Part shown: piece after piece, positions 17,715-41,835 of the stretch
How the letters are laid out: each line of letters opens with the position of its first letter
Numbering within the stretch: the stretch's first letter is position 1
Notes under the pieces: model-generated
What the model was told of the DNA's origin: nothing
What the model saw: only the letters and a program-made list of their open reading frames with translations
Database searches by the model: none
Made by a program: the position numbers and the translations under genes
Source: Gammaproteobacteria bacterium
GTDB lineage: Bacteria > Pseudomonadota > Gammaproteobacteria > Arenicellales > JAANXG01
Length of the DNA: 64,000 nt
Assembly: GCA_034520625.1 (NCBI GenBank)
Contig: JAXHNI010000004.1
Span: forward strand, 55,070 to 119,069
Direction of reading: 5' to 3'

Positions 17715-17806
17715 GGGATCAATGGGGGCAGACTCGATTGATCAACCAAGTTTTCGACCATGCCGGTTGATTCGCAGGATCAATCGAGTCTGACCTCATT
17801 GATTCC
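17715..17806. repeat. head-to-head pair of family-2 REP-like palindromes
   Basis: GGGATCAATGGGGGCAGACTCGATTGATCA (17715-17744) and GGATCAATCGAGTCTGACCTCATTGATTCC (17777-17806, inverted). The second copy contains the stop and last codons of the DUF3179 gene. Confidence 0.8.
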
Positions 17807-18751
17807 GTCGAATACTTCTGTGTCCGGATGAAAAGCGATCCAGGCGAACCAGTACGCGATTACCGTCGGGATCTCGCTGCCGGATTCGTCCAGCACCCGG
17901 CCGGTGCGGTTGACGGCATCGAAATGCACGGTCAGCCGGCGCCCCGCGAGCTCGTCCTGGAACGGCGTGTCGAGCTTCGACAGTTCCGCGAACGGGTAGG
18001 CCTTCATCTGTCCATCCAACTCCAGGCCGATCACCTGTTCTTTGGAATGATACCGGGCGTCGCGGTTGGCAACTGGAAACCAGACCTGTTCGCTGTTCTC
18101 GTAGCCCGCATAGGGCGCGCGATCGTAGTTTCGGTTGTATCCGGTTTCCGTGGACAGCACCAGGGTATCCGGGTGGCGTGTTCGCCAGTCGCGCCAGGTC
18201 GTGTAACTGGCCGGCAGATGCTCCAGCCGGGTCCCGATCATCGGGCCGCTTACGGCTTCTGCCATGATCTGTGACCACAGGGACTCTGTCTCCCGGTCAT
18301 AGAGGAGCACGTCGCTGTTGTAGAGGAGCCCGGATACACCGAAGCTGGTGTTCCGGCCTCCGACACCGGACGAGAACGCCATACCCGTGCCGCACAGCGG
18401 GCAATAGCTGACCACCACTTCTTCGCCGTCGAAGTCGTCGTTCACGACTTCGTGGTAATTCAATATCTTGATGGGATACGCCTTGGCCACGCCGTTCAGG
18501 GTCATGCCCATGACGCGGTCTGCCGGCGCCAGGAAGTCAACGGATGCAGGTTTGAGGAACCTGGGTTCGTCGATCGCCGGAATACCGTCCTTTGGCGGCC
18601 CGCCGTGGTGAATATCATCCCGGGGGATCGACGTTTCACTCAAGTCAAAGCCGTTGAGCGACGGCCCGGCACCGTTTGCCGCTGCAGCCAGCAGCAGGAG
18701 TGCGACGCACTGTGGACGTATCACCGCCGGAAGAAGTCTCATAGTCAACAC
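17780..18751 (-). CDS. DUF3179 domain-containing secreted protein
   Basis: Signal peptide, then FDLSETSIPRDDIHHGGPPKDGIPAIDEPRF...VAKAYPIKILNYHEVVND...VVVSYCPLCGTGMAF, the hallmark of DUF3179. Confidence 0.85.
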   Translation of the reverse strand: MLTMRLLPAVIRPQCVALLLLAAAANGAGPSLNGFDLSETSIPRDDIHHGGPPKDGIPAIDEPRFLKPASVDFLAPADRVMGMTLNGVAKAYPIKILNYHEVVNDDFDGEEVVVSYCPLCGTGMAFSSGVGGRNTSFGVSGLLYNSDVLLYDRETESLWSQIMAEAVSGPMIGTRLEHLPASYTTWRDWRTRHPDTLVLSTETGYNRNYDRAPYAGYENSEQVWFPVANRDARYHSKEQVIGLELDGQMKAYPFAELSKLDTPFQDELAGRRLTVHFDAVNRTGRVLDESGSEIPTVIAYWFAWIAFHPDTEVFDGINEVRLD

Positions 18752-19483: not shown

Positions 19484-19510
19484 GAGCACGGCGGCTTGGC
19501 CGCCGTGCTC
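19484..19510 (+). terminator. GC-rich hairpin (12-bp perfect stem, 3-nt loop) downstream of the small secreted ORF
   Basis: GAGCACGGCGGC-TTG-GCCGCCGTGCTC followed by CTGTCGTT. The U-tract is weak, so terminator activity is inferred only. Confidence 0.45.
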
Positions 19511-19738
19511 CTGTCGTTACGATGTGCAAGTCTGTGGTCCGATGATGCCGCGTTATCCGTCGGGCTCTCGTTGGCGGGTTTCGCGCCATCCGGCTTGAGT
19601 ACTCGACGCGGCCCCGGACCCGGCAGGGGCGCTCAAGAACTTTATAACGCGCTCAGAGTCTCACCGAACATGCTTGGAGGGACGGGCGTTGCGCGGACGG
19701 CCCGAATACACGAACGCCACTTGGAGAAGTCTTCCAGT

Positions 19739-20713
19739 ATGAAACAGATTCCATCAACCGGACCTTCGTTCGGAGAAGAGCTGCGCCAAAACGGTTTGGG
19801 TTCCCTGAAGCGAGCCCACCTGACCGAGTTGCAGGTCAACGTCGGCAAGTTGTGCAATCAGGCGTGCAGCCACTGTCATGTCGATGCAGGACCCAAACGA
19901 ACGGAGATCATGACCCCCGAGATTATGGCGCGGATCGTGGCGTGGCTGGAGGATGCCGGCATTGCGCATGTCGACATAACCGGCGGCGCGCCGGAGTTGA
20001 ACCCCGGTTTCCACCGTTTCGTCGATGACATTCTTCAGGCGGGCGCCCGGGTCACTTCGCGGTGCAATCTTACAGTCCTATTCGAGCCCGGCCAGGAGGA
20101 TCTGGCACAGTGGTATGCCGACCGCCAGGTACGCCTGGTCTGTTCCCTGCCCTGCTATTCACGCCGCAATGTCGATGCCCAGCGCGGTAAGGGCGTATTC
20201 GGCAAGAGCATTGAGGCACTCAAGGCCCTGAACGAGGTCGGGTACAGCTCCGATCCCGAGCTGGTACTGGACCTCGTGTACAACCCCGGCGGAGCCAGTC
20301 TCCCGCCGTGCCAGGAGTCGTTGCAGGAAGAGTACCGGGAACGCCTTTGGGAGGACTTCGGTATACGGTTCAACAATCTTTTTACTCTCGCCAACCTGCC
20401 CATCAACCGTTTCGCGCATTTTCTGGAACGCCAGGGTAAAGCCGAGGAGTATCAGCACCTCCTGATCGACAACTTCAACCCGGACACCGTCAATGGCCTG
20501 ATGTGCCGCCATATCATATCGGTGGACTGGGAAGGCCGCGTCTATGACTGTGACTTCAACCAGATGCTGGAGCTGCCCATGGGCATGAACGGTGTGCAAT
20601 ACCTGTGGGACATCGATTCCAGGGAACTGGCAGACCAGCCAATCCGCGTGGACCGGCATTGTTTCGGCTGCACCGCCGGCGCCGGCTCGAGCTGCGGAGG
20701 CGCGTTGACATGA
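19739..20713 (+). CDS. arsS: radical SAM / Cys-rich domain protein, ArsS-like (TIGR04167-type)
   Basis: ORF 19496-20713, trimmed to MKQIPSTGPSF... Motifs: LQVNVGKLCNQACSHCHVDAGP (CxxxCxxC cluster), DITGGAPELNP, QRGKGVFGKSIEALKALN, LVYNPGGASLPP, ISVDWEGRVYDCDFNQML, and the C-terminal HCFGCTAGAGSSCGGAL. Confidence 0.85.
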   Translation: MKQIPSTGPSFGEELRQNGLGSLKRAHLTELQVNVGKLCNQACSHCHVDAGPKRTEIMTPEIMARIVAWLEDAGIAHVDITGGAPELNPGFHRFVDDILQAGARVTSRCNLTVLFEPGQEDLAQWYADRQVRLVCSLPCYSRRNVDAQRGKGVFGKSIEALKALNEVGYSSDPELVLDLVYNPGGASLPPCQESLQEEYRERLWEDFGIRFNNLFTLANLPINRFAHFLERQGKAEEYQHLLIDNFNPDTVNGLMCRHIISVDWEGRVYDCDFNQMLELPMGMNGVQYLWDIDSRELADQPIRVDRHCFGCTAGAGSSCGGALT

Positions 20714-22714: not shown

Positions 22715-23188
22715 ATGCGATTTACGCTGACCGCCGCTGTACTTGCACTGCTTCTTGCCGCCTCAATGTCTGCGAATGCCGATGACCGGAACCCCTACTC
22801 GGGTATGCAGAGCGTTGATACCGGTGTCCCGATCCTGGAATATCAGGAGTCGCTTCTTGAGGCCGTGAAAGCCAACGATATGGGGGTGGTGGCTCAAGCC
22901 TGTGCCGACTGCGGTGCAAAGGCGGTGCTGGGCAAGGATATCCCCCGAAACCGCGTGATCATGATTTTCCATCCGAGGTTTGCGGTGCGAATGCTCGAGG
23001 CCAGCGTGGCCGCCGGCATCGAAGCTCCGCTGCGTCTGTATCTGACGGAACAGGAAGACGGTACGGCGAGACTGACCTATCGGCTGCCGAGCCATGTATT
23101 CGGGGCTTATGAAGTGGCGGCGCTGGACGAGCTGGGCCGGGAGCTGGACGGGACAATCGCCCGTATCGTCGACGACGCGGGACGGTAA
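22715..23188 (+). CDS. DUF302 domain-containing periplasmic protein
   Basis: Signal peptide MRFTLTAAVLALLLAASMSANA. Core ...NDMGVVAQACADCGAKAVLGKDIPRNRVIMIFHPRFAVRMLEASVAAGIEAPLRLYLTE... is typical of DUF302. Confidence 0.8.
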   Translation: MRFTLTAAVLALLLAASMSANADDRNPYSGMQSVDTGVPILEYQESLLEAVKANDMGVVAQACADCGAKAVLGKDIPRNRVIMIFHPRFAVRMLEASVAAGIEAPLRLYLTEQEDGTARLTYRLPSHVFGAYEVAALDELGRELDGTIARIVDDAGR

Positions 23189-23447: not shown

Positions 23448-24605
23448 GTGATTGACAAATCGGTCCATGGGCTTTGGCTCGCCGTCGCGGCCACCGTGGT
23501 GCTGACGCTGATTCTGCACCTGCAAAGGAGCGGTGGGACCCTGGCGGTGCTTTTCGTCATTGGCATTGCCCTGGGCGCAACGTTGTACCACGCCGCGTTG
23601 GGTTTCACGGCCGCTTATCGCCGATTCTTCCTGGATGGAGAGATCTCGGGGATTGTGGCCCAGATTGTAATGCTTGCGGTTGCCATGACCCTGTTTGCCC
23701 CGGTGTTGGCGGCTGGCGAAGTTTTTGGCCATGGTGTTTCCGGCGCCGTCGCGCCGGTAGGCGTGTCGATGGTGCTGGGCGCCTTTTTGTTCGGTATCGG
23801 TATGCAGCTGGGCGGGGGGTGCGGTTCCGGCACCCTGTTTACCATGGGCGGAGGCGATGCGCGAATGGTTGTCACGCTGGCGTGCTTCTGCATCGGCGGC
23901 TTCTGGGGCAGCCTGGACCTGGCCTGGTGGAGGACGCTTCCGGAAGCCCCTGCCGCTGCGCTCGGGGAACGCTGGGGGTATGGACGAGCGTTGGCGGCTC
24001 AATTGGTCGTTCTCGGTCTGGTCTATGTCGTCCTGCGGCGCAGGTTCGGCCGGCCGGTTCCGTCGCGCCCGCCGCCGGGCGGGCCGGAGCGCCCATCGCT
24101 CCTGTATGGACCGTGGCCGTTGCTGCTCGGGGCGGTGCTACTGGCGGTGCTGAACTGGTTGACGCTGCTCGTAGCCGGCCATCCCTGGAGCATCACCTGG
24201 GGGATGACGCTCTGGGGCGCCAAGGCGGCAGTGCTTGTGGGTTGGGAGCCGGTGGGGCAGGGCTTCTGGTCTGGATTGTTTCAGCAACAGGCTCTGGCGA
24301 ATCCGGTGCTTGACGACCCAACGTCCGTAATGGACGTGGGCATCATTGCCGGCGCGTTCGTGGCCGCGGTTCTGGCAGGACGCTTCAGGCCGACGCTTCA
24401 CATACCACCGCGCGCCCTGTTGGCTTCCGTAGTTGGCGGTTTCCTGCTGGGATACGGCGCCCGGTTGGCCTACGGCTGCAACATCGGTGCGTTTTTCTCC
24501 GGGGTGGCATCCACCAGCCTCCACGGCTGGTTGTGGATAGCGGCGGCACTGCCCGGCAACTGGCTCGGTATCAAGTTGAGGCCCTGGTTCGGCCTGCCGC
24601 GGTAA
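23448..24605 (+). CDS. YeeE/YedE family inner-membrane protein (thiosulfate/sulfur-compound transporter family)
   Basis: 385 aa, polytopic, GTG start. Two sulf_transp-type motifs: QLGGGCGSGTLFTMGGG and AYGCNIGAFFSG. Confidence 0.85.
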   Translation: MIDKSVHGLWLAVAATVVLTLILHLQRSGGTLAVLFVIGIALGATLYHAALGFTAAYRRFFLDGEISGIVAQIVMLAVAMTLFAPVLAAGEVFGHGVSGAVAPVGVSMVLGAFLFGIGMQLGGGCGSGTLFTMGGGDARMVVTLACFCIGGFWGSLDLAWWRTLPEAPAAALGERWGYGRALAAQLVVLGLVYVVLRRRFGRPVPSRPPPGGPERPSLLYGPWPLLLGAVLLAVLNWLTLLVAGHPWSITWGMTLWGAKAAVLVGWEPVGQGFWSGLFQQQALANPVLDDPTSVMDVGIIAGAFVAAVLAGRFRPTLHIPPRALLASVVGGFLLGYGARLAYGCNIGAFFSGVASTSLHGWLWIAAALPGNWLGIKLRPWFGLPR

Positions 24606-24948: not shown

Positions 24949-25584
24949 CTATATAGCATTACTTTCAACTATCGGGTCCAGCAGCCGCTTGAGCGCCGCA
25001 CGGGCCCGGTGCAGCCTGGTTTTCACCAATGGTTTGGAAATATCCAATAGTTCCGCTGTTTCAGAGGTGCTGAGTTGCTCTATATCCCGTGCTATTACGA
25101 TCGCTCGATACTCGTTCGGCAGACGGTCTATGGCAGCTCTGATTGCAGCCTGCGTTTGACCCTGTTCATACAGATTCTCGACTTCCTTCGCTTCCGAGAG
25201 CGGGGCTTCCTCGATCCGCATCCCCTGCGGATCGAATGCAGGGAGCAGATCATCCAGCGAATCCTCCCGCGTGCGGTTCCTGGATCGCAGCCGCATCAAC
25301 GCGGTGTTTGCGGTGACGCGATGCAGCCAGGTATCCAGACTGGAACGCCCCTGAAACTGGGCCATGCTGGTAAAGCATTTCAAAAGGGCTTCCTGGAGGC
25401 AATCATGTGCGTCGGCCTCGTTGCCGGTAATGCGCCGGGCAACCGCCAGCATTCGGCCGCCGTGATTCCTGACCAAAATCTCGAAAGCGCTCTCATCGCC
25501 TGCCAGGATGCCTTGTACCAGCTCCGCTTCCGTGACATCGGTTTCCGCGTGGCTCTGAGTCGTGTTCACAGGGTTGGATGCCAT
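24949..25584 (-). CDS. ECF-type RNA polymerase sigma-70 family factor
   Basis: Region 2 (FEILVRNHGGRMLAVARRITGNEADAHDCLQEALLKCF...DTWLHRVTANTALMRLR) and region 4 (LPNEYRAIVIARDIEQLSTSETAELLDISKPLVKTRLHRARAALKRLL). Confidence 0.9.
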   Translation of the reverse strand: MASNPVNTTQSHAETDVTEAELVQGILAGDESAFEILVRNHGGRMLAVARRITGNEADAHDCLQEALLKCFTSMAQFQGRSSLDTWLHRVTANTALMRLRSRNRTREDSLDDLLPAFDPQGMRIEEAPLSEAKEVENLYEQGQTQAAIRAAIDRLPNEYRAIVIARDIEQLSTSETAELLDISKPLVKTRLHRARAALKRLLDPIVESNAI

Positions 25585-28462: not shown

Positions 28463-28496
28463 GATCCCCGCCGGGTTGCCGGCGGGGATCTTTTTC
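28463..28496 (+). terminator. rho-independent terminator after the porin gene
   Basis: GATCCCCGCCGG-GTTG-CCGGCGGGGATC followed by TTTTTCATT. Confidence 0.8.
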
Positions 28497-28522
28497 ATTC
28501 GAGATCTTCCGCGCAGCAATTC

Positions 28523-30595: not shown

Positions 30596-31226
30596 GTGGG
30601 TATATGCAGCGGGGTTGGTCGTCTGTGTCTTGCTAGTACCTCTGCGGACAACGGCTGATCCGGTCGGGGAGGTCGCGGTGTCGGCGGTAATCGAACATGC
30701 GCCCGCCCGGGAGTTGGAAAAGGCGGATGTCGTGTATCCCCTGGCGGTATTGGAAGGTGCGGGTTGGGAATGGCCGGGTATCGAGCGGGCGGTACGACAG
30801 GTCGAGGAAATATTCGGTCAGTGCGGGGTTGCCGTCACTGTTGGACACATTTATCTGCTGTCGGCGCCCGATGACTTTTTGGAGCTGGACGAGTCGATGC
30901 AGTCCCGGCTCCTGGACAGGCTTCCGGAGTCCAGGCCGGCGGCGTTGCTGGTGGGCCGAACCACTGATCAAGATACGGCGTATTCCTATCTGGTGTCGGC
31001 GCCGGTGCCGAGCCGGGGCACCGCATGGGTGACCAGAGCCAGCCGGCCGGTGTGCCTCGGTGTTCTTCTGGCCCATGAGCTCGGCCACATACTATTGAAT
31101 ACAGCCCGTCACAACAGGGATCCGGAGAACTTAATGTCCTATACCTGTACCATCTCGAATATACAAAGATCCGCGATTGGCGCCCGACTGAGTGCTTCCC
31201 AGTGCAGGCAGCTGCGTGAACGATAG
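30585..31226 (+). CDS. secreted HExxH metalloprotease-like protein (hypothetical)
   Basis: Overlaps the upstream stop by 11 nt. Signal-like N-terminus MRRKWVYAAGLVVCVLLVPLRTTA. Motif LLAHELGHILLNTARHNRDPENLMSY (HExxH plus a possible Met-turn). Confidence 0.6.
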   Translation: MRRKWVYAAGLVVCVLLVPLRTTADPVGEVAVSAVIEHAPARELEKADVVYPLAVLEGAGWEWPGIERAVRQVEEIFGQCGVAVTVGHIYLLSAPDDFLELDESMQSRLLDRLPESRPAALLVGRTTDQDTAYSYLVSAPVPSRGTAWVTRASRPVCLGVLLAHELGHILLNTARHNRDPENLMSYTCTISNIQRSAIGARLSASQCRQLRER

Positions 31227-31528: not shown

Positions 31529-32074
31529 ATGATGCGGGCGCCCCATCCTGCATTGCACCGGCGCATGGAAGCCGTGCGGCCGAAGCTCTTTCGCACCGCA
31601 TTTGCCTGGTGCCACAACCGCGACCTTGCTGAGGACCTTGCGCAGGAGACGCTGGCCAAGGCCTTGACGAAAGTCGGACAACTGAGGTCCATCGATGCCC
31701 TGGAGGGTTGGTTGTTTCGAATCATGGCGAATCTTTGGCGGGACCATGTACGCAGGGACCGTCCCATGGACACCATGGAGGACGTGGACGTCAGGACCGA
31801 GGAAACACCAGAGGACATCAACAGCCAGCAGCAGACCGTCGCCCGTGTACGACGCGCTCTGGGGCAGTTGCCGGACAACTACCGGGTTGCATTGACCCTG
31901 GTGGACCTGGAGGGCTTTTCCTACTCCGAAACCGCCTCGATCATGGAAGTTCCCGTGGGAACGGTCATGAGCCGGCTGTCACGCGGAAGAAGTCAGCTCG
32001 CTAAGCTGTTGAAGGAATCCGGTAATACGAGCGAACTCCCTGCGGTGACATCCCACGTGAAACAGGTGAAATGA
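31529..32074 (+). CDS. ECF-type RNA polymerase sigma factor
   Basis: Region 2 (LFRTAFAWCHNRDLAEDLAQETLAKAL...GWLFRIMANLWRDHVRR) and region 4 (LPDNYRVALTLVDLEGFSYSETASIMEVPVGTVMSRLSRGRSQLAKLL). Confidence 0.9.
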   Translation: MMRAPHPALHRRMEAVRPKLFRTAFAWCHNRDLAEDLAQETLAKALTKVGQLRSIDALEGWLFRIMANLWRDHVRRDRPMDTMEDVDVRTEETPEDINSQQQTVARVRRALGQLPDNYRVALTLVDLEGFSYSETASIMEVPVGTVMSRLSRGRSQLAKLLKESGNTSELPAVTSHVKQVK

Positions 32075-32531: not shown

Positions 32532-33275
32532 GTGCCGATGACCGATGATTACAGATTTTCCGATGAACTGTTGAATGCCTATGTCGACGGTGAGCTTGTT
32601 GACGAGGAGCGGCGGTTCATCGACGAAGCCATGCGCAGCGACGACCGCCTCCGTGAACGGGTGCAGGAGCTGCAAGGCCTTAAATCATTGGTCAGGGACG
32701 CTTACCAGGATGAGATCCCCATGCGCGAGGTGGTTGCCGGTCGCCGTCTTTGGAACACAGCGGCTCTGGCGGCGTCCGTGGCTGCTTTTGCCGTGGGGGT
32801 TGCCGTTACCTGGGGGGTGTATACGTATACTGATTCGGCCGGCGGGCCCCGCGTGGCATCATTGTCGAGCCAGGACGAGGGTAACAGCGGCGACGTTCAG
32901 GGCGCTGTCAAAGTGGTGTTTCATGTGAGCAGGGATGATCCGGAAAAGCTGATCGATATCCTCAATGAGGCCGAAGCGCTGCTGACCACCACGACACGGG
33001 CGGGTACAACCGCTTCGGTGCGGATTATTGCCAGCGGTGAGGGGTTGTCACTGTTCGAGAACCGGCCCACCTCGGCGACGGAACGCGTCACAGAGATGAA
33101 GGCGGCGTATGAGGGAGATTTGATTTTCAGTGGCTGCGGAGTTGCATACGACCAACTGAAGGAACAACGGCCGGACGGCAAGCTGGAGCTCTTGCCGGCG
33201 ATCAAGCTCGTGGATCTGGGGGTTCTGGAGCTCATGCGCCGGCAGCGTGAAGGTTGGGCGTATATCCGCTTGTGA
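32532..33275 (+). CDS. membrane anti-sigma factor with a C-terminal DsrE/DsrF-like (COG1416-type) domain
   Basis: N-terminal anti-sigma region (LLNAYVDGELVDEERRFIDEAMRSDDRLRERVQELQGLKSLVRDAY). One TM (AALAASVAAFAVGVAVTWGVY). The C-terminal domain starts VKVVFHVSRDDPEKLIDILNEAEALL and ends GVLELMRRQREGWAYIRL*, which resembles the COG1416 DsrE-like fold. Confidence 0.7.
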   Translation: MPMTDDYRFSDELLNAYVDGELVDEERRFIDEAMRSDDRLRERVQELQGLKSLVRDAYQDEIPMREVVAGRRLWNTAALAASVAAFAVGVAVTWGVYTYTDSAGGPRVASLSSQDEGNSGDVQGAVKVVFHVSRDDPEKLIDILNEAEALLTTTTRAGTTASVRIIASGEGLSLFENRPTSATERVTEMKAAYEGDLIFSGCGVAYDQLKEQRPDGKLELLPAIKLVDLGVLELMRRQREGWAYIRL

Positions 33276-33335: not shown

Positions 33336-34781
33336 TTAATAGGCATCAGGCGGCCGCGACTGATGCGGGAGTCCCGATCCGCCGTGATACGTTTCGCTAT
33401 CATCACGGCGGGGTTGCAGACCGGCGGCGAAAGAAACGAATCCGGTAACCAGCACGGCTCCGGTGATCGCAAGCAATCGGGAGTATTTGTGCTCCAATCC
33501 CGTCAGCGTTTCAATGATGGCTGTATACCCGGCGTTCTCAACGAAGTAGATCGCGGCGCCCGCGAACGCGGCAGTCACCGAGGCCGCCAGACTCCACGCC
33601 GCGATTTCACGCTTGCCCCAGATGCAGAACACAATAACCGGGGTCAGGAACAGTGAGGCCGTTCCGCTGACGGCGACGGCGGCAAACAGATCGTCCGTCC
33701 CGAGAAAGACCAGCATAAGCCCCAGTACGCAGAACAGACCCATGGCGACTCTTCCGTTTCCGGGCGTCGAATCAGCCAAGCCCATATCCTGGATTACCAG
33801 CTTCGCCGCACTGGAAAATGTGGAATCAAGTGTAGACGCGGCCGAGATCACCAAGGCCACGCTGAGCATGAGTGTGGCAGGCGCTCCGAGCAGCCGGTTC
33901 AAGGTTCCCAGCAGTTCCTCTTCCCCGGACCGGTTCAAGCCCGCGAACACGCCGAGCAACCCGAAGGCCAGGATGCACAGTGCCGATATCCAGAACGCAT
34001 GCAGGAAGCTTCGCCGGGTAATATTTCGGTCAGCGATGAAACCGCGGTCCATCATTACCGGGTCGTGCAGCGGATAACTCCAGACCTGCAGTGCTGCCAC
34101 GATCAGCAGTATCCAGCCCGGGTTGCCGAGCTCCGGGCTGCTCACGGCGATGCTCCGGAGCTCGAACAGTGGGCTGGCTACCATCAGCCCAGACAAAGCG
34201 GCGAGCAGCGCCACAAGAATGCTCAGCTGCAATACATCCGTGCGAAGCGAAGCCCGGAGACCGCCGTTCATGGAGTAACCCACAGTTACCGCGGACACGG
34301 CAAGTATTGCGGCCGCGTAGCCCGATGAACCCGCCGCTCCGAACACAATGCCGACGACGAGCAGATTCGCGAACACCTCGCTCAACAGCCGCAGCGACAC
34401 CAGGATGTTGAAGCTGCCGCTGCCCAGGCGGCCGAAGCGCCGGGCCAGGAAAGTCTGCACATTGCCGGCGCCATGTCTGAACCGCAGTGAATCGACGATC
34501 AGCCAACCGGTAAGGAACGATCCGTAGTACGCGGTGTATGCCAGGGCGCCGGATATCCCGTAGTAGTACCCCAGAATTCCCGCATTCAGCAGTGATCGCG
34601 CGAATATCCAGGTCGTTACCTGGGAGAAGGTGAGTGTGAGAACCCCCGGCAGGATTCCGGTGTCTCCGGATCCCCGGTAAAAACCGTCCGCGGTTCGGAC
34701 TCTCGGAGCGATCGCGATGCTCAGTACGCCGATGGCGACAAGTATGCCGATGAGCAACGGCAGATGTGTCTCGATTTTCAT
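33336..34781 (-). CDS. sodium:solute symporter (SSF) family transporter
   Basis: 481 aa, about 13 hydrophobic spans. Motifs such as FYRGSGDTGILPGVLTLTFSQVTTWIFARSLLNAGILGYYYGISGALAYTAYY and GGLRASLRTDVLQ. Confidence 0.8.
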   Translation of the reverse strand: MKIETHLPLLIGILVAIGVLSIAIAPRVRTADGFYRGSGDTGILPGVLTLTFSQVTTWIFARSLLNAGILGYYYGISGALAYTAYYGSFLTGWLIVDSLRFRHGAGNVQTFLARRFGRLGSGSFNILVSLRLLSEVFANLLVVGIVFGAAGSSGYAAAILAVSAVTVGYSMNGGLRASLRTDVLQLSILVALLAALSGLMVASPLFELRSIAVSSPELGNPGWILLIVAALQVWSYPLHDPVMMDRGFIADRNITRRSFLHAFWISALCILAFGLLGVFAGLNRSGEEELLGTLNRLLGAPATLMLSVALVISAASTLDSTFSSAAKLVIQDMGLADSTPGNGRVAMGLFCVLGLMLVFLGTDDLFAAVAVSGTASLFLTPVIVFCIWGKREIAAWSLAASVTAAFAGAAIYFVENAGYTAIIETLTGLEHKYSRLLAITGAVLVTGFVSFAAGLQPRRDDSETYHGGSGLPHQSRPPDAY

Positions 34782-35061: not shown

Positions 35062-35742
35062 ATGGCCAACATGCCGCACTTGAAAGGTTTCAGGAAAAAT
35101 ACGCTACACGTCGCGGTAATCGGCGCGGTGTTCGGTTTTTCCGGTGCATCTGCGCCGGCGCTGGCTGCAGAAAGCGGTTCGTTGGAATCCATTCTCGTCG
35201 CGTCGACGTGCAACCCCTGCAACCCCTGCAACCCGTGCAACCCGTGCAACCCGTGCAACCCGTGCGCTGCGGGGGGGGTGGATCCCGATGATGTGGTCCG
35301 GCCGGATGGTACGGAACCCTATTCGGGGGACAGGCAGGAGCTGGTGTCCATGGGTGAAGCGTTGTGGTCGGATACCGAGCTGAGCACCAATGGGCTGTCG
35401 TGCCAGACCTGCCACCAGGGGAATCAGAACTTCAAGGCAACCTTCGCCAGTCCCTATCCTCATGAGGTCGAAATGGCGACTCAGAGAGCAGGTCTGGGAA
35501 AGATTACTTCCGAGGAGATGGTGCAGCTTTGCATGGTCGTCCCGATGCAGGCGAAGCCTCTGGCCTGGGACTCGAAAGAACTGGCCGCCCTGGCGGCATA
35601 CACGGAGAAGGTACAGAAGAGCTACAACCCCTGTGCCGCCGCGAATCCCTGCACTGCTGCGTGCGCTCCGTGTAATCCCTGTGCCGCCGCATGCGCCCCC
35701 TGCAATCCGTGCAATCCGTGCAATCCCTGCGCCGCCAATTGA
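35062..35742 (+). CDS. secreted monoheme c-type cytochrome flanked by Cys-Asn-Pro / NPC repeat tracts
   Basis: GGGAG RBS. Signal peptide ...GASAPALA|AESG, then (CNP)6-C. The central domain carries CQTCH (nt 35401-35415) and a distal Met candidate (VVPMQAKP). C-terminal tail: [39 protein letters not shown]. Confidence 0.8.
35209..35265 (+). repeat. 9-bp tandem repeat (TGCAACCCN) x6 encoding (CNP)6-C
   Basis: tgcaacccc x2 then tgcaacccg x4, then tgc. In frame with the cytochrome ORF. Confidence 0.95.
35623..35739 (+). repeat. degenerate NPC/APC/AAC triplet-repeat tract at the cytochrome C-terminus
   Basis: Encodes [39 protein letters not shown]. 10 Cys in 39 residues. Confidence 0.9.
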
Positions 35743-35884
35743 TGCGTCCGGCGGCGAGGCAGAGATCAAGAGATTAAGAGATTAAAGGTATCGACGGGGT
35801 TTTACATTTTGAGTACGTCATCCGTACGGGTGACGGGCCACTCCACTACCAACCATCAACACATACCAGAGAGGAGTCGTTACC

Positions 35885-36259
35885 ATGACTGATGCCCCCG
35901 AGAAGAACGGGCTGAAAATGAAACCCATCTGTGCCGCGGTGATGGGTGCCGCCATGGGATTGGCGGTTGCCGGCACGCCGGCGTTGGCCGCAGATACCAG
36001 CAGTCAGCCGATCACGGTTGCATCCTCGTGCAACCCGTGCAACCCGTGCAACCCATGCAACCCATGCAACCCATGCAACCCATGCAACCCGTGCAACCCG
36101 TGCAACCCGTGCAATCCATGCAATCCATGCAATCCATGCAATCCATGCAATCCATGCAATCCGTGCAATCCATGCAATCCGTGCAATCCGTGCAATCCGT
36201 GCAATCCATGCAATCCATGCAATCCATGCAATCCATGCAATCCATGCGCCGCTGACTGA
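35885..36259 (+). CDS. secreted (CNP)24 repeat protein, heme-less paralog of the upstream gene's N-terminus
   Basis: AGGAG RBS 8 nt upstream. Signal peptide ...[10 protein letters not shown]|ADTSS. The leader [12 protein letters not shown] is homologous to [13 protein letters not shown] of the upstream protein. Then 24 perfect Cys-Asn-Pro units, Cys, AAD*. A strong terminator follows. Confidence 0.75.
36029..36247 (+). repeat. 9-bp tandem repeat (TGCAAYCCR) x24 plus terminal TGC
   Basis: Unit order: AAC-CCG x2, AAC-CCA x4, AAC-CCG x3, AAT-CCA x5, AAT-CCG x1, AAT-CCA x1, AAT-CCG x3, AAT-CCA x5. All differences between units are synonymous in the CNP frame. Confidence 0.95.
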
Positions 36260-36310
36260 GGCTCCGGGTTGTCGCGCCCTTGCACGGCCGATGTGCATTG
36301 CGAGTCAGTC

Positions 36311-36356
36311 GCAGGGCGGGGAGAAGTATCGACCTTCTCCCCGCCCTGCTTTTCCT
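36311..36356 (+). terminator. rho-independent terminator after the (CNP)24 gene
   Basis: GCAGGGCGGGGAGAAG-TATCGAC-CTTCTCCCCGCCCTGC followed by TTTTCCTGTGTTT. Confidence 0.85.
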
Positions 36357-36452
36357 GTGTTTGGGGCCTCGCATCCCGCGTCGGGGGACCACCGCACCCC
36401 TGGACTTGAAACGCATGCTGATCGGGTTCAGATTAGTCGGAGAGACGAAACA

Positions 36453-37193
36453 ATGCTTACCAAGACCGATATGAATGAGCGATTGGCCCTGGTTGACAAG
36501 TCGCAGCTGGATCCAAAGGAGCTGCAGGCACTGTGTGCGGCCGGAGACGAGATCCAGGAATGCTACCGGGTGTTGAGCAAGGCGAAGATGAACATCGTGG
36601 GCGAGTGCCTGAAGAATCAGGGCGCGTTCATGAAGTTCAATCACTATCCCAAGGGGGATGTGTATGACTGGGAAACCCATGCTCAATACTACTATCATAC
36701 CCACCGGGGTATCGCGGACGAGCACGGGCACTTCCACACGTTCATGCGCGCACGGGGCATGCCGGACGGGGTCGAACCGGTACCTTATGACGGGGATGTG
36801 GATTGGCCGTCAGGAAAGGATGCCGTATCGCATATTATCGCCATATCCATGGACAAGTTTGGCTACCCTGTCGGACTTTTTGCAACCAACCGCTGGGTAA
36901 CCGGGGAAACCTGGTACGCGGCGGAGGATGTTGTCGCCATGGTGGACAACTACAGGATCGACCATGCCTACCCGAACTGGCCGGTCAATCGGTGGATTAC
37001 CGCGATGTTCAGGTTGTTCCGGCACGAGATATTCGCTTTGCTCAGGCATCGCGACGAGGTCGTGGCGAGGTGGGGACGCGAGCATGTGGGTGTGGACACC
37101 TTCGAGGATCGGGACCTCGAAATCACCGGCTTCATTTCCGCAACCGTCGAGGACCAACTCGAAGCCGTTGATCAGGCGTTGGGGAGTCGTTGA
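36453..37193 (+). CDS. conserved-looking hypothetical protein with a His-rich motif (possible metal-binding/cupin-like)
   Basis: C-terminal 246 codons of track ORF 35946-37193. GGAGA RBS 9 nt before ATG 36453. Motif NHYPKGDVYDWETHAQYYYHTHRGIADEHGHFHTFMRA. No family confidently recognised. Confidence 0.7.
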   Translation: MLTKTDMNERLALVDKSQLDPKELQALCAAGDEIQECYRVLSKAKMNIVGECLKNQGAFMKFNHYPKGDVYDWETHAQYYYHTHRGIADEHGHFHTFMRARGMPDGVEPVPYDGDVDWPSGKDAVSHIIAISMDKFGYPVGLFATNRWVTGETWYAAEDVVAMVDNYRIDHAYPNWPVNRWITAMFRLFRHEIFALLRHRDEVVARWGREHVGVDTFEDRDLEITGFISATVEDQLEAVDQALGSR

Positions 37194-37545: not shown

Positions 37546-39219
37546 TTAGTCGCGCAGTATGCCCGGCAGGTTCAGCCCGTGCTCCCGGGCGCACTGGATG
37601 GCGTCTTCGTAGCCGGCGTCGGCGTGGCGCATGACGCCGGAAGCCGGGTCGTTCCACAGCACGCGCTTGATGCGTTCGGCGGCCTCGTCGGTGCCGTCGC
37701 AGCAGATCACCATGCCGGCATGCTCGGCGAAGCCGATACCCACCCCGCCGCCGTGGTGGATGCTCACCCAGGTGGCGCCGGAGGCGCAGTTCAAAAGGGC
37801 GTTGAGCATGGGCCAGTCCGCCACGGCGTCCGAGCCGTCCTTCATGGCCTCGGTCTCGCGGTTGGGGGACGCCACTGAGCCGGCGTCGAGATGGTCGCGG
37901 CCGATCACTACCGGCGCCTTGAGCTCGCCGCTTTTCACCATGTCGTTGAACGCCAGGCCGAGCCGGTCGCGCTGGCCGAGCCCGACCCAGCAAATGCGCG
38001 CCGGCAGGCCCTGGAACGAGATCCGCTCCCGGGCCATGTCCAGCCATTGGTGCAGGTGCGGGTCGTCGGGGATCAGTTTCTTGACCCGGGCGTCGGTTCT
38101 GTAGATGTCCTCCGGGTCCCCGGACAGCGCCGCCCAACGGAACGGACCCACTCCCCGGCAGAACAGGGGCCGGATATAAGCGGGTACGAAGCCCGGGAAA
38201 TCGAAGGCATTCTCCAGCCCTTCCTCGTAGGCGATCTGGCGGATGTTGTTGCCGTAGTCCACGGTGGGTATGCCGCGATGCGAGAACTCGAGCATTGCCT
38301 GTACGTGCTGCCTGATGGAAGCGCGGGCGGCCCGGTTCACGGCGCCGGGGTCGTTGCGGCTCCGGTCCCGCCACTCCTCGATGGTCCAGCCGACGGGCAG
38401 GTAGCCGTGGCCGGGATCGTGCGCGGAGGTCTGGTCGGTGACGATGTGCGGCTGCGCGCCGCGCTTCACCAGTTCCGGCAGCACCTCGGCGGCGTTGCCG
38501 AGCAGGCCGACGGATTTCGCCTGGCCGGACGCCGTCCAGTCGGCGATCATGGACAGGGCGTCGTCGATGGAATCGGCTCTTTCGTTGAGGTAGCGCGTGC
38601 GCAGCCGGAAATCGATCCGATCCGGGTCGCACTCCACCGCCAGGCAGCAGGCGCCCGCCATCACCGCCGCCAGGGGCTGGGCGCCCCCCATGCCGCCGAG
38701 GCCGCCGGTGAGGATCCACTTGCCGGTCAGGTCGCCGCCGTAGTGCTGGCGCCCTGCTTCGACGAAGGTTTCGTAGGTGCCCTGGATGATTCCCTGGGAA
38801 GCGATGTAGATCCACGAGCCCGCCGTCATCTGGCCGTACATCATCAGGCCTTTCTTGTCGAGCTCGTTGAAATGGTCCCAGGTCGCCCAGTGGCCGACGA
38901 GGTTGGAGTTGGCGATGAGCACCCGGGGGGCGTCGCGGTGGGTCTTGAACACCCCCACGGCCCGGCCGGACTGGATCAGCAGTGATTCATCGTCCTCGAG
39001 TTTCTCCAGCGCCCCGATGATGCGGTCGTAGTCGTCCCAGGTGCGTGCCGCGCGCCCGATCCCGCCGTATACCACCAGCTCGTGCGGATTCTCCGCGACG
39101 TCCGGGTGCAGGTTGTTCATCAGCATTCGCATGGGCGCTTCGGTGAGCCAGGACTTGGCGGTGAGCTGCGTGCCGGTGGACGGTTTGATGGTGCGGTTCT
39201 GGTTGCGGGGGTCGGGCAT
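37546..39219 (-). CDS. hutU: urocanate hydratase
   Basis: 557 aa with full-length urocanase features: ...[27 protein letters not shown]..., [14 protein letters not shown], ...[11 protein letters not shown]... Confidence 0.95.
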
Positions 39220-39311
39220 GGCTGCGGTCTCAGGCTGGTTCAGGGTTCCCGGTTCGGTTTATCTCATACTGGCATTGACGCCGGCAACAATGATCGATGG
39301 CTGAGACGAAT

Positions 39312-39383
39312 GGGATCAATGGGGTAATTTGATGCCAATGGGAGATCCCGTAGCGGGGCGCGAGGGGCCGGGAGGGTCCTCGC
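39312..39383. repeat. partial family-2 palindrome plus a truncated copy of the family-3 left arm
   Basis: GGGATCAATGGGGTAATTTGATGCC, then CCGTAGCGGGGCGCGAGGGGCCGGGAGGGTCCTCGC. Compare CCTGTAGCGGGGAGCGAGGGGCCGGGAGGGTCTG at 16001-16034. The conserved core is absent here. Confidence 0.6.
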
Positions 39384-39431
39384 TTTGCGTTGATTTGAAG
39401 GCCGGGGGCTTCGACAAATGCAGGTCGGGCG

Positions 39432-39489
39432 CTGTAGGTCGGGCGCGAGCCCGACATTTGTTTCCAGTCGGGCTCGCGCCCGACCTACA
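39432..39489. repeat. REP-like palindrome, family 1 (second copy)
   Basis: CTGTAGGTCGGGCGCGAGCCCGAC-ATTTGTTTCCA-GTCGGGCTCGCGCCCGACCTACA. The right arm overlaps the hutG stop codon. Confidence 0.8.
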
Positions 39490-40288
39490 TGGATTCGCTG
39501 CATACGGACCCAAGGATGGAGCTACGCAGCGCATCCAGCAGCGTTCGTAAATGTCCCCGCAGGGCGTCGGCGCGGTCTGGGCGGTAGGTCCATGGTGGTG
39601 CTTCGTCCATGTATGCCCGTTGGGCAAGCTCCATCTGGATCGCGTGGATGCCGTTGTCCGGGTCGCCGTAGTGCCGGGTGGTCCAGCCGCCCTTGAAACG
39701 GCCGTTGACCACGGTGTCGAATCCGACGGCGCGGCGGCAGATGCCGGCCGCCAGCGCCTCGATGCGCGAGGAGCAGCTTTGCCCGTCATTGGTGCCGATG
39801 TTGAACACCGGCAGCGTGCCCTCGAACAGATGAGGAATCCGCGAGCGGATGGAATGACAGTCGTACAGGACCGCGATGCCATGCCGGCGCCGGATGCGCT
39901 CGAGCTCGCCGGACAATGCGTCATGATAGGGGGCGTGATACGCCAGCCGGCGTGCTTCGATTTCGTCCGTCGATGGCTCCTGTCCCGGCCGGTAGATGGG
40001 CCGCCCGTCGAAATCGGTGACGGGGCACAGCCCGGTGGTGTTCAGGCCGGGGTAGAGGGACTCGTCCTCCGGCCCCCGGTTCACGTCGATGACGTAGCGG
40101 TGCAGGGTGGCGCGCACCACGGTGGTGTCGGCCAGCAGGCCGTCGTACAGCCGGTCGACGTGCCAGTCGGTATCCCGGAGTGATCTGCCGTCTTCGTTGA
40201 GCCGCTCGGCGATCCCCCCGGGCAGTTCGGTGCCGGTATGCGGCTGGGCCAGCAGGACCGGCCCGTCGCCCCGCTCGATGTGCACCAT
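39485..40288 (-). CDS. hutG: N-formylglutamate amidohydrolase (formylglutamate deformylase)
   Basis: 267 aa. VLLAQPHTGTELPGGIAERL...DTDWHVDRLY...VIDVNR... is FGase family. Its ATG shares one nucleotide with the hutH stop. Confidence 0.85.
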   Translation of the reverse strand: MVHIERGDGPVLLAQPHTGTELPGGIAERLNEDGRSLRDTDWHVDRLYDGLLADTTVVRATLHRYVIDVNRGPEDESLYPGLNTTGLCPVTDFDGRPIYRPGQEPSTDEIEARRLAYHAPYHDALSGELERIRRRHGIAVLYDCHSIRSRIPHLFEGTLPVFNIGTNDGQSCSSRIEALAAGICRRAVGFDTVVNGRFKGGWTTRHYGDPDNGIHAIQMELAQRAYMDEAPPWTYRPDRADALRGHLRTLLDALRSSILGSVCSESM

Positions 40289-41835
40289 CAGCCGCCGCTT
40301 TCCAGGTCGGGAAACGCGGCCCCGCAGGCGGCTTCGCAGACCCGGCCTGCGCCGACGAGCGCCGCGGCCTGTTCCAGGTCCGGGGCCAGGTACCGGTCCT
40401 GGTCCAGGCCCGGTACCATGGTGCGCAGCAGGTCCACCACCTGCTCCAGCACCGCGCTGGTGCGCAGCGGCCGGCGCAGCTCAATGCCCTGGACGGCGAT
40501 CAGCAGCTCGATGCCGATGATGCGTGAGAGATTGTCGTTCATGTCCAGCAGCCGGCGCGCCCCATGGGTGGCCATGGAGACGTGGTCTTCCTGGTTGGCG
40601 CTGGTGGGCGTGGAGTCCACCGAGCAGGGCGCCGCGTGCTGCTTGTTCTCGGAATACAGCGCCGCTGCAGTGACCTCGGCCACCATGAAGCCGGAATTGA
40701 GCCCGGGGCTCGGGGTGAGGAACGCCGGCAGCCCGAAGCTCAGGGCAGGATCTACCAGCATGGCGATGCGCCGCTCGGTGATTGAGCCGATTTCCGCGAT
40801 GGCCAGCGCGAGCTGGTCCGCCGCGAAGGCCACGGGCTCGGCGTGAAAATTGCCGCCGGAGAGAATCAGGCCGCTGTCCGGAAAGATCAGGGGGTTGTCG
40901 GTGACCGCATTGGCCTCGCGCTCCAGCGTGCGGCCGGCCTGGCGGATGAGGTCCAGGCATGCCCCCATCACCTGGGGCTGGCAGCGCAGGCAGTAAGGGT
41001 CCTGAACCCGCTCGTCGCCGAAACGATGGGACTCCCGGATTTCGGAGCCGGACATGAGTGCCCGCAGGGTCGCGGCGGCATCGATCTGCCCCGGCTGGCC
41101 GCGCAGCGCGTGGATCTCGGCTTGGAACGGCGCCGACGATCCCATTCCCGCGTCGGTGCACAACGCACCGGTCACCATGGCGCTGTTCAGCAGGCGGTGG
41201 GCGTCGAACAGGCCGGCCAGTGCCAGCGCCGTTGAAATCTGGGTACCGTTGATGAGCGCCAGGCCTTCCTTGGCGGTCAGCACGATGGGCTCGATGCCGG
41301 CCAGGCTCAGGGCCTCGCCACCGCTCCGGCGCCGGTCCCCGCAATACGCCTCGCCCTCGCCGATCATCACCGCCGCCACGTGTGCCAGCGGCGCGAGGTC
41401 GCCGGACGCCCCCACGGAGCCTTGCCCGGGAACGACGGGGATTACGTCCCTCGCCAGCATCTGCTCCAGCACCTCGATCAATCGCCAGCGCACGCCGGAG
41501 GCGCCGCGGCCGAGGGACAGCAGCTTCAGGGCCATGGCCAGTCGCACGATGCCCGCCGGCAGCGGCTCGCCGACGCCCGCGCAGTGGGACAGGATCAGGT
41601 TGCGCTGGAGTGTCTCGGTATCGCCGGCGGGGATGCGCACCTGGGCCAGCTTTCCGAACCCGGTATTGACGCCGTACACGGGTTCCCCGCCCGCTGCGGC
41701 TTCCGCCACCAGCCCGGCGGACTGCTCGACGAGTCCGCGGCAGGCCGGATCGAGGCGGCACGCGGCGCCTTCGCGGTAAATGCGTTCCAGGTCCCGAAGT
41801 CCGGCGGCGCCGGGCCTGAGTATCGCCCCGTTCAT
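40288..41835 (-). CDS. hutH: histidine ammonia-lyase
   Basis: 515 aa. MIO-forming triad in [34 protein letters not shown]. Confidence 0.95.

Follow-up and report, generated by a model that had tools for sequence, protein, structure and literature searches.

The locus considered here lies in a stretch of 64,000 nucleotides from a gammaproteobacterium of the Arenicellales lineage (GenBank assembly GCA_034520625.1, contig JAXHNI010000004.1, positions 55,070 to 119,069). This whole stretch is referred to as the window, and all coordinates are counted from its first letter. Two neighboring open reading frames (ORFs) on its forward strand encode proteins dominated by uninterrupted repeats of the triplet Cys-Asn-Pro (CNP, or NPC in the register used for the family). 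As read from its sequence, ORF1 is a Sec-type secreted monoheme c-type cytochrome with Cys-rich arms, and ORF2 is its heme-less paralog, which holds 25 Cys within its last 76 residues (Table 1). An earlier note on this DNA, made from the sequence alone, had described both ORFs with their signals, tracts, CQTCH motif, ribosome-binding site, and terminator, and all of these are found in the sequence where it placed them. The signal peptides of both proteins were judged by eye, from the N-terminus and the AxA site, and not by a predictor. The note had viewed the two genes on their own. However, they belong to a recurrent cluster of 8-10 genes and make up the core of a conserved envelope module, apparently controlled by an extracytoplasmic function (ECF) sigma factor.

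Table 1. Features of the window at and around the two NPC-repeat genes (positions in nucleotides unless residues are named).
Feature	Position	Strand	Basis
ORF1, NPC-armed monoheme c-type cytochrome, 226 aa	35062..35742	+	ORF and translation
ORF1 signal-like N-terminus, ending ..APALA/AESG	residues 1-35	+	sequence
ORF1 N-terminal arm, (CNP)6-C, C50 to C68	35209-35265	+	sequence
ORF1 SoxA/TsdA-like heme domain, ~118 aa	35272-35625	+	Pfam, AF2, Foldseek, profile
ORF1 heme motif CQTCH, residues 114-118	35401-35415	+	sequence
ORF1 invariant Cys157	35530-35532	+	family alignment
ORF1 NPC-rich tail, Y188-N226, 39 aa, 10 Cys	35623-35739	+	sequence
ORF2, heme-less secreted NPC peptide, 124 aa	35885..36259	+	ORF and translation
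ORF2 ribosome-binding site AGGAG, 8-12 nt 5' of ATG		+	sequence
ORF2 signal, ending ..TPALA/ADTSS, then a short pro-region	residues 1-35	+	sequence
ORF2 (CNP)24, perfect units, then C-AAD-stop	36029-36244	+	sequence
Intrinsic terminator 3' of ORF2, 16-bp stem, 12 G-C pairs and T run	36311..36349	+	sequence
DUF6969 protein, 246 aa, no signal peptide	36453..37193	+	Pfam E=2.9e-82
ECF-type sigma factor	31529..32074	+	Pfam Sigma70_r2, r4_2
Anti-sigma factor, zf-HC2 type	32532..33275	+	weak zf-HC2/anti-sigma matches under curated cut-offs
Sodium/solute-symporter-like transporter	33336..34781	-	weak TIGR00813 match
DUF3179 secreted protein, displaced	17780..18751	-	Pfam E=1e-90
ArsS-like radical SAM gene	19496..20713	+	TIGR04167, 439 bits; Radical_SAM and DUF3641
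Small cytochrome c gene	22130-22447		Pfam
DUF302 protein, displaced ~12 kb upstream	22715..23188	+	Pfam, tblastn
YeeE/YedE-type "sulphur transport" membrane protein (PF04143), displaced	23448..24605	+	Pfam E=1.4e-66
Second ECF sigma factor	24949..25584	-	Pfam/tblastn

Relatives of the two proteins are widespread. Homologs of ORF1 fall into at least 869 clusters at 90% identity, the closest being 76% identical, and a pattern scan finds relatives in 269 species-representative genomes. The hosts are mainly Beta- and Gammaproteobacteria (Burkholderiales, Gallionellaceae, Nitrosomonadales, and Methylophilaceae), and further relatives occur in Rhodospirillaceae, Magnetospirillum, Methylocystis, Methylomirabilota, Rokubacteria, Gemmatimonadales, and Entotheonella. 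Denitromonas iodatirespirans IR-12 and Motiliproteus sp. MSK22-1 are tractable hosts of the NPC cytochrome. The genome nearest to the window is a gammaproteobacterial metagenome-assembled genome from the Red Sea Suakin Deep, whose heme domain is 70% identical. Each of the best 120 homologs of ORF1 has one heme motif and 3-43 NPC motifs, which lie on both sides of the heme domain. ORF2-like proteins make up the majority of ~500 further clusters. They are typically 80-130 amino acids (aa) long and consist of a signal peptide followed by NPC blocks. Gene neighborhoods were compared by tblastn with the window proteins and de novo ORF clustering over 83 cytochrome-anchored loci, many of them truncated contigs, and a heme-less NPC ORF adjoins the cytochrome gene or the DUF6969 gene in 39 of these. 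The paralogy that had been proposed from the related leaders is borne out across the family: the leader and pro-region of cytochrome and peptide align with a median local score of 64 within a locus versus 31 across loci. No Pfam or NCBIfam model matches the NPC tracts, and no metallothionein or Csp family was matched. A literature search found no publication on NPC-repeat proteins or DUF6969, with the NPC repeat of the Clostridioides difficile protein CdeC as its sole relevant match, which agrees with the earlier statement that no characterized family is recognizable.

The repeating unit of the family is NPC. Among 4266 tract Cys residues, Asn occupies position -2 in 82% and Pro occupies position -1 in 84%. 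The Cys-to-Cys spacing is 3 in 55% of cases and 6 in 21%, and many members, built from NPCAAK-type repeats, are devoid of any CNPC or CxxC. Thus, the family unit is NPC and not CxxC, the motif that had initially been emphasized. CxxC as the functional unit was ruled out as a family rule because many members space their Cys by 6. The usual build is 2-3 NPC per block, with AAK as the spacer where the hosts are Betaproteobacteria of fresh water and soil and AAD, AAS, or AAN in the marine relatives. A role of the Lys-rich AAK spacers in attracting anionic substrates was also ruled out, since the window lineage has AAD/AAE spacers or none. An Asn-Pro step can make an Asx-Pro turn, and a Pro after Asn prevents deamidation; the NPC unit would be a chemically robust presentation of a thiol.

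The heme domain is found with other arms as well. Its family comprises 276 clusters at the level of 50%-identity representatives. Of 128 representatives that are near full length, 57 have NPC arms, 10 have other Cys-rich arms (e.g., KCGAC repeats), and 2 have acidic arms, while 31 have short or no arms; the 28 classed as "other" include members whose GEAEAK arms bear HHRHH patches. This survey indicates that the heme domain is constant and that the arms are exchangeable low-complexity modules. In the distant members P0371, P0413, P0418, P0443, P0387, and P0482, GEAEAK/HHRHH or KCGAC arms take the place of NPC. NPC arms themselves contain neither His nor Met.

Several features support the reading frame and the coding nature of the ORF2 tract. 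Tandem Repeats Finder reports a period of 9 with 24.3 copies and 96% matches. The units occur in four variants, arranged in ordered blocks, whose sole differences are AAC/AAT and CCG/CCA. In the CNP frame, these differences fall on third codon positions; in any other frame, they would alter the protein. Homologs from hundreds of genomes likewise keep the CNP frame, which answers the concern, raised in the earlier note, that another frame of the repeat might be the conserved one. A Logan assembly made independently (SRR26473339) starts within the last three repeat units and matches at 100% identity across the stop codon, the terminator, and DUF6969. Since its contig begins in the repeat, it confirms the stop codon and where the tract ends on its 3' side, but says nothing on whether there are 24 copies. 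Short k-mers cannot bridge the tract, so this number is without independent verification. Exact look-ups of the ORF1 and ORF2 proteins, alternative starts, and overlapping other-frame ORFs gave no match in a collection of 15 billion proteins, leaving the repeat without independent full-length confirmation.

In comparison with its relatives, the window stands out by the regularity of its repeats. The longest unbroken (NPC)n run is 3 units in 238 homolog proteins and 5 units in ~200 ORFs of the loci, versus 6 and 24 in the window. Among the proteins and ORFs compared, runs of more than five NPC units are found only in this window, whose NPC runs are outliers in purity and not in size. The peptide of the nearest genome (L004) has 121 aa and reads (NPC)4-AAD, (NPC)4-AAD, (NPC)4-AAD, (NPC)3-AAD, (NPC)4-AAE. 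By its sequence, ORF2 looks like a homogenized, spacer-free derivative of such a peptide, as slippage of a 9-bp unit would yield; a repeat of 9 bp lends itself readily to length changes that keep the frame. Long ORFs in other frames also cross the repeat, at 35946-37193 (+), 35846-36298 (-), 36004-36285 (-), and 36012-36737 (-), and read as HAI, WIA, HGL, and MDC repeats. The first of these starts from a GTG at 35946 and runs into the DUF6969 frame; homologs place the real start of DUF6969 at the ATG at 36453. The 142-bp spacer between ORF1 and ORF2 contains an 8-bp tandem repeat (AGAGATTA, three copies, 35761-35785).

The heme domain of ORF1 is of the SoxA/TsdA type. ORF1 matches the Pfam model SoxA-TsdA_cyt-c (PF21342) with 36.4 bits, where the gathering cut-off is 27, and also matches the N-terminal heme-motif region of Pfam CCP_MauG. 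The NCBIfam SoxA equivalog scores 25.7 bits against a cut-off of 110, far too low for ORF1 to be SoxA itself. In an AlphaFold2 (AF2) model built from 19 sequences, residues 71-190 have a predicted local distance difference test score (pLDDT) of ~90, whereas the signal peptide and both arms are below 50. Structure prediction, one of the checks outlined in the earlier note, therefore depicts the Cys tracts as disordered. Foldseek retrieves from the PDB only SoxA (1h31, 3oa8, 3ocd) or TsdA (4wq7 and relatives) among its ten best matches, with probabilities of 0.95-1.0 and E-values of 0.02-0.12; seven of them are TsdA entries. When a profile of 27 core sequences was compared with the PDB, Rhodovulum sulfidophilum SoxA (1h31_A) was the best match (E=2e-4). 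In this alignment, the family motif EMVQxC lies opposite "QMINAC" of SoxA, and Cys157 of ORF1 falls on its Cys, which we take to be the heme-1 ligand Cys114.

The same residue bears on the identity of the distal heme ligand, for which a Met had first been suggested. Cys157 is kept in essentially all of 251 family sequences, including all 53 remote members. The other candidate ligands are less strictly kept in these sequences (Met162 in 94%, Met153 in 95%, Met138 in 92%, and His134 in 96%). Because Cys157 is near-invariant and the Met residues are less so, His/Cys ligation is likelier than a distal Met, and the alignment points to Cys157 as the most likely distal ligand of ORF1. Met162 may serve as an alternative or switch ligand, in a Cys/Met switch.

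The genes that accompany the NPC pair recur in a common order. ECF sigma and DUF3379 anti-sigma genes are followed by the NPC cytochrome, with an NPC peptide before or after it, and then by DUF6969, a secreted protein of ~159 aa, DUF302, a YeeE/YedE-type transporter (PF04143), and DUF3179; a multiheme cytochrome gene is often part of the cluster too. Co-occurrence with cytochrome fusions and ECF sigma genes, which had been put forward as a question, is indeed found: an ECF sigma gene is present in 28-44 of the 83 loci, depending on the method, DUF6969 in 57 (mostly directly downstream and on the same strand), and cytochrome-NPC fusions are seen in the best 120 homologs. The YeeE/YedE-type transporter is found in 37 loci, DUF302 in 29 (usually just upstream of the transporter gene), the ~159-aa protein in 29, the multiheme cytochrome in 26, DUF3179 in 23, and the DUF3379 anti-sigma in 20. 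In ~20 loci, the ECF sigma and anti-sigma genes are directly upstream of and co-directional with the NPC genes. The ~159-aa protein belongs to no Pfam or NCBIfam family, and its PDB matches are only non-significant ones (E ~1) to cupredoxin-type domains. DUF302 is located between soxA and soxB in Acidithiobacillia (PMC5037610), and the DUF3179 family includes UxxC selenoprotein members (PMC9312934).

The window has this gene set in dispersed form; the ~159-aa secreted protein, the multiheme cytochrome, and a DUF3379-type anti-sigma factor are missing. Pfam annotation covered the window ORFs at 16.1-26.8 kb and 27.0-37.2 kb and, in the other loci, part of the neighbor clusters. The window anti-sigma factor consists of an N-terminal zf-HC2 domain, a hydrophobic stretch that by eye is a membrane segment, and a C-terminal domain that is probably periplasmic. 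A Pfam scan of this C-terminal domain gave no match even at E-values up to 10. Its PDB sequence matches are MTH1491 (1l1s, E=2.7e-6), ST0148, and a DsrE-like design, with a Cys kept, and it could be a sulfur-sensing input domain. The YeeE/YedE-type transporter has sub-threshold NCBIfam matches to YedE/FdhT and TsuA. Homologs of the symporter-like protein between the anti-sigma gene and ORF1 occur in few other NPC loci (L006, L008, L082, L083). An ECF-type promoter motif (GGAAC-N17/18-GTC) lies upstream of the ECF sigma and DUF302 genes, and a GGAAT variant lies upstream of ORF1. The motif was dropped as a regulatory link, as the window contains 9 sites versus 5.6 expected and 11 of 100 shuffles reach 9.

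Other genes accompany the module in part of the loci. The radical S-adenosylmethionine (SAM) protein gene of the ArsS type sits between the DUF3179 and DUF302/YeeE genes of the window; seven other loci likewise have an ArsS gene no more than 10 kb from their NPC/DUF6969 cluster, and one adjoins the Burkholderia glumae cluster described below. Secreted proteins similar to formylglycine-generating enzyme (FGE)-sulfatases (PF03781) adjoin DUF6969 or NPC genes in 18 loci, including L104, L124, L128, L133, and L154. In one lineage (L001/L002, 7133-9971), the NPC cytochrome is flanked by AhpC/TSA-type and chlorite-dismutase-family genes instead of DUF6969.

DUF6969 accompanies the NPC genes as a conserved partner. 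The family comprises 5948 homolog clusters, and its invariant residues include H64, D69, D72, H82, H84, E90, H93, H95, H127, D134, E152, D170, and H171. Judged from its sequence, the protein is cytoplasmic and His-rich. Its AF2 model is confident (pLDDT 88.5; predicted template modeling score, pTM, 0.89), and neither a PDB fold match (best E=0.75) nor a PDB sequence match was found. A cupin assignment, suggested by an HxH..E..H string, is ruled out by this confident model without a PDB fold match. Of 50 metagenome loci that are anchored on DUF6969 and extend 1.5 kb or more upstream of it, 42 have an NPC gene; several of the eight others have FGE-like or DUF2336 genes instead. In five loci (L039, L057, L069, L079, L083), a heme-less NPC gene lies immediately 5' of DUF6969, with gaps of ~10-30 bp.

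DUF6969 also occurs in other contexts. On Burkholderia glumae plasmid pWSGX3, a DUF6969 protein that is 34% identical to that of the window is encoded after an 89-aa secreted peptide (L166, 5568-5837) with another Cys repeat, of the (A/G)(P/S/A)KC type (..CGPKCASKCGAKCGAK..KCASKCAPKCAPKCAPKCAAQ). The order there is ECF sigma, zf-HC2 anti-sigma, major facilitator superfamily transporter, Cys peptide, and DUF6969, with thioredoxin and CcdA genes upstream; the cluster also contains methylthioadenosine phosphorylase and TIGR04282/TIGR04283 genes and is flanked by genes of the ArsS system. In Sinorhizobium meliloti 1021, a secreted rhodanese, a YeeE/YedE-type transporter, and DUF6969 stand in a row on pSymB (~1.09 Mb; L165, 3389-6579), a stretch for which the plasmid collection lists no features. 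The Azospirillum DUF6969 gene lies alongside DUF2336 and PAS kinase genes and has no Cys peptide. DUF2336 is a further recurrent neighbor of DUF6969. Together, these contexts tie DUF6969 to more than one type of Cys-repeat peptide and to sulfur-transport genes. The earlier observation that no maturase is nearby therefore holds for known maturases but overlooks DUF6969 itself, a conserved partner directly downstream that also accompanies the Cys peptide of B. glumae.

We tentatively favor, with somewhat less than even confidence, a reading in which the NPC pair forms a periplasmic thiol array that, under stress control, carries or buffers sulfur of the sulfane or thiosulfate/thiosulfonate type, similar in principle to SoxAX-SoxY. 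It is favored because the parts with biochemical precedent all point to sulfur, namely the SoxA/TsdA-type heme domain, the YeeE/YedE-type transporter, DUF302, the S. meliloti rhodanese, the DsrE-like domain, and DUF3179. SoxA-family enzymes join thiosulfate to a thiolate via the Cys heme ligand (PMC4423706). The disorder of the arms in the AF2 model is as expected of a swinging arm, and the S. meliloti rhodanese represents a different type of periplasmic sulfane carrier in an equivalent slot; both count for a sulfur role. A persulfide or polysulfide carrier, which was among the roles offered in the earlier note, thus gains support from gene context.

The proposed mechanism would begin with the export of ORF1 and ORF2 by Sec. 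ORF1 would be given one c-type heme, probably with Cys157 as the distal ligand, as in the Cys-ligated SoxA/TsdA cytochromes. The NPC arms, like the free NPC peptide, would serve as carriers with many thiols, in a role analogous to that of the swinging-arm Cys that SoxY offers to SoxAX. Sulfur in sulfane, thiosulfonate, or polysulfide form would be placed on the NPC cysteines, or taken off them, by the heme domain, presumably with covalent carriage. In this way, reactive sulfur would be buffered or shuttled in the periplasm at high capacity. Sulfur species may then be handed to the YeeE/YedE-type importer and undergo cytoplasmic processing by DUF6969, and the sigma factor would regulate the cluster.

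The module resembles the known sulfur systems in part. With SoxAX/SoxYZ it shares a periplasmic c-type heme domain of the SoxA/TsdA type, a conserved Cys aligned with the SoxA heme ligand, a DUF302 neighbor, and, as proposed for ORF1, a substrate thiol on a flexible arm. However, ORF1 has a single heme domain without SoxX, and no SoxB or SoxCD was seen. SoxYZ is a folded heterodimer with one carrier Cys in a GGCGG motif, whereas the candidate carriers here are low-complexity poly-NPC segments, fused or free, that AF2 predicts to be disordered. The heme domain is likewise related to the His/Cys-ligated N-terminal domain of TsdA. Unlike TsdA, ORF1 lacks a second heme domain for electron exit, has no evident counterparts of Arg109 and Arg119, and has added Cys-repeat arms. 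Rhodanese/Sud and DsrE-family relays also carry sulfur on Cys outside or across the membrane, and a rhodanese slot and a DsrE-like anti-sigma domain are found here. These carriers, however, are folded and have one active Cys, whereas the candidate carriers of the NPC family are disordered and have 7-25 Cys.

A number of observations weigh against a role in sulfur carriage. Within SoxA, it is the N-terminal heme-1 domain and not the catalytic domain that gives the best alignment with the core profile. TsdA binds thiosulfate through Arg109 and Arg119 (PMC4423706). If positional equivalence to these arginines is assumed, the residue four positions before Cys157 is Met in 95% of the family, and just 27% have Arg fifteen positions before it (R142). 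ORF1 has a single heme, and neither a second heme domain nor an adjacent SoxX-like gene was found; potential substitutes for the second heme are the multiheme cytochrome gene present in 26 of the 83 loci and the small cytochrome c gene of the window. Since TsdA-like arginines are not evident and only one heme is present, ORF1 represents a new subfamily that is neither SoxA nor TsdA. SoxYZ, SoxB, and other recognized sox genes are not among the recurrent neighbors, and many hosts (methylotrophs, nitrifiers, Entotheonella, and Methylomirabilota) are not classical sulfur oxidizers. About one quarter of the 128 family representatives are armless, and the Cys-free GEAEAK or His-rich arms of several members would allow cation binding but not sulfur carriage. 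The charge of the spacers flips from AAK to AAD between lineages, so the spacers are no conserved anion-binding site. SoxA-family heme chemistry on a carrier thiol is of a known kind, but the NPC module itself is undescribed, and there is a substantial chance that the whole system is something new.

The chief alternative, possible if doubtful, is a periplasmic sponge for soft metals or metalloids. The NPC thiolates would chelate Cu(I), Hg(II), Cd(II), As(III), or selenium (as selenotrisulfide), and the heme domain would act as a redox switch, with thiol oxidation to disulfides freeing the metal and reduction re-arming the array. Dense thiol arrays free of other side chains fit this role, and the typical unit of 2-3 Cys (CNPCNPC) plus spacer chemically suits trigonal thiolate sites; the absence of His and Met from the NPC arms speaks against it. 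Glu-rich, His-rich, or KCGAC arms replace NPC on the same heme domain in other members, which makes "ion-binding arms" the simplest common denominator of the exchangeable Cys, Glu, and His arms. The apparent ECF sigma/anti-sigma control is akin to that of envelope metal-stress systems, ArsS-like genes accompany the window module, the B. glumae cluster, and seven further loci, and the FGE-sulfatase-like neighbors of 18 loci are relevant because FGE enzymes are cuproenzymes (PMC12452194). There is also a formal analogy to bufferins, Sec-exported Cys copper chelators with sigma/anti-sigma genes and cytochrome c or FGE fusions (PMC12452194, PMC11626156). However, families of the cop, cus, mer, ars, and czc types are not among the recurrent neighbors, whereas sulfur-linked families are (YeeE/YedE, DUF302, rhodanese, DsrE-like, and the SoxA-like heme domain), and the case for a metal sponge is one of analogy only. 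The same likeness underlies a further, unlikely reading, in which DUF6969 is a cytoplasmic metalloenzyme of new fold that modifies Cys-repeat precursors before Sec export, as MNIO enzymes (oxidative enzymes dependent on multinuclear non-heme iron) do on bufferins and oxazolins. The mature product would then be a metallophore or redox peptide of the kind of peptides that are made on the ribosome and modified after translation (RiPPs) and not a plain thiol array. Its substrates would be of the NPC type here and of the PKCA/KCGAC type in Burkholderia and other lineages, and one substrate would be a heme protein with modified arms. Such products would constitute a novel, MNIO-independent class of RiPP-like metallophores or redox polymers in the periplasm. 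Bufferins and oxazolins (Buf1, Buf2, Buf_EGKCG/HvfA) share with the NPC clusters Cys precursors with Sec signals, sigma/anti-sigma genes, and a precursor gene directly 5' of a cytoplasmic metalloenzyme gene (here DUF6969, a putative metalloenzyme). They also share repeat members with dozens of Cys, cytochrome c fusions, and FGE-sulfatase fusions or neighbors (PMC12452194, PMC11626156, PMC11252979). They differ in being MNIO-modified metallophores, whereas the partner here is DUF6969, which is also found without a peptide. MNIO (DUF692), DUF2063, and DoxX are not among the scanned window ORFs or the annotated recurrent neighbors. Modification by DUF6969 is suggested by the conserved and often tight order of precursor and DUF6969 (the five loci with gaps of ~10-30 bp), by the NPC gene in 42 of the 50 anchored loci, and by the B. 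glumae homolog, which at 34% identity follows a different Cys-repeat peptide (..KCASKCAPKCAPKCAPKCAAQ) in the same gene order. The leader and pro-region common to cytochrome and peptide of one locus, the strictness of the motif (Asn at -2 and Pro at -1), the approximately nine invariant or near-invariant His residues of DUF6969 together with its Asp and Glu, and the precedent of RiPP precursors with Sec signals (PMC12452194) point the same way. Against it, DUF6969 is also found without a nearby Cys peptide (in Azospirillum, S. meliloti, and the eight loci above), no partner resembling a RiPP recognition element, no protease, and no known maturase was seen, a strong terminator separates ORF2 from DUF6969 in the window, and a 226-aa cytochrome would be an unusual RiPP substrate. 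Such a modification would be compatible with either the sulfur or the metal role.

It is improbable that the peptides form a sacrificial redox buffer, in which thiols scavenge HOCl, H2O2, reactive chlorine or nitrogen species, or electrophiles and are re-reduced via the heme domain, DUF3179, or other cytochromes. The model for this is MrpX, reportedly described by Melnyk and colleagues in 2015 as a Met-rich periplasmic peptide of Azospira suillum under SigF/NrsF control with MsrP/YedY as its partner. As in MrpX, an exported low-complexity peptide dominated by one redox-active residue appears to be under ECF sigma control. The AhpC/TSA-type and chlorite-dismutase-family neighbors of one lineage and the recurrence of DUF3179, a family with UxxC members, and of cytochrome genes in the cluster would also fit. 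MrpX is, however, Met-rich and not Cys-rich. A dedicated reductase, be it its partner MsrP/YedY or DsbD/CcdA, is not conserved in the NPC clusters, CcdA and thioredoxin occurring in B. glumae only, and a redox buffer leaves the YeeE/YedE-type transporter, DUF302, and cytoplasmic DUF6969 without a role. Least probable of all, and to be given very little weight, are two further readings. In one, the long (CNP)24 tract would stem from misassembly or from slippage in the very recent past, and the genuine gene would have short NPC blocks and spacers as in its relatives; in the other, NPC tracts would be disulfide cross-linking structural elements. The runs of 24 and 6 units compared with a maximum of 5 elsewhere, the break of k-mer assembly inside the tract, and the negative look-ups of the exact proteins would agree with an artefact. 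However, the length of ORF2 is typical of the family (124 aa, with 121 aa for the peptide of the nearest genome), a simple collapse would not be expected to leave four synonymous variants in ordered blocks, and the frame, signal peptide, stop codon, and terminator are intact, with the 3' end independently confirmed. Moreover, the genes and the family are real even if the copy number is wrong. A structural role has its precedent in CdeC, which contains an Asn-Pro-Cys repeat in a Cys-rich protein and self-assembles (PMC7677010). CdeC, however, is a Gram-positive spore-surface structural protein of 405 aa with 6 units, without a Sec signal or heme context, and there is no evidence of homology; a structural role also leaves the heme domain and the conserved cluster unexplained.

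Under any of these readings, an undescribed module is present in at least 269 species genomes of soil, groundwater, marine, and sponge-associated bacteria. It unites a SoxA/TsdA-type heme domain, disordered poly-Cys arms, a free poly-Cys peptide, DUF6969, and a YeeE/YedE-type transporter, and it gives DUF6969, DUF302, DUF3179, and DUF3379 a testable common context. If the sulfur-carrier reading is true, the module would be a second, structurally unrelated answer to the swinging-arm problem solved by SoxY and would endow many non-sulfur-oxidizers with a high-capacity periplasmic buffer for reactive sulfur. Should a rival reading be right instead, the module would stand for a novel metal(loid) sink in the periplasm or for modified peptides of a new type.

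Other genes near the module in the window lie outside the conserved cluster. Region 25978-31226 encodes a trypsin-like protease, a DcaP-like porin, a 690-aa protein with tetratricopeptide repeats and a sulfotransferase domain, and a secreted protein of 213 aa that contains a HELGH motif and matches no family. Downstream, at 37546-44563, the translations reveal a histidine-utilization block (urocanate hydratase, formylglutamate deformylase-like, histidine ammonia-lyase, imidazolonepropionase, and formimidoylglutamate deiminase-like proteins) that is apparently unrelated to the NPC genes.

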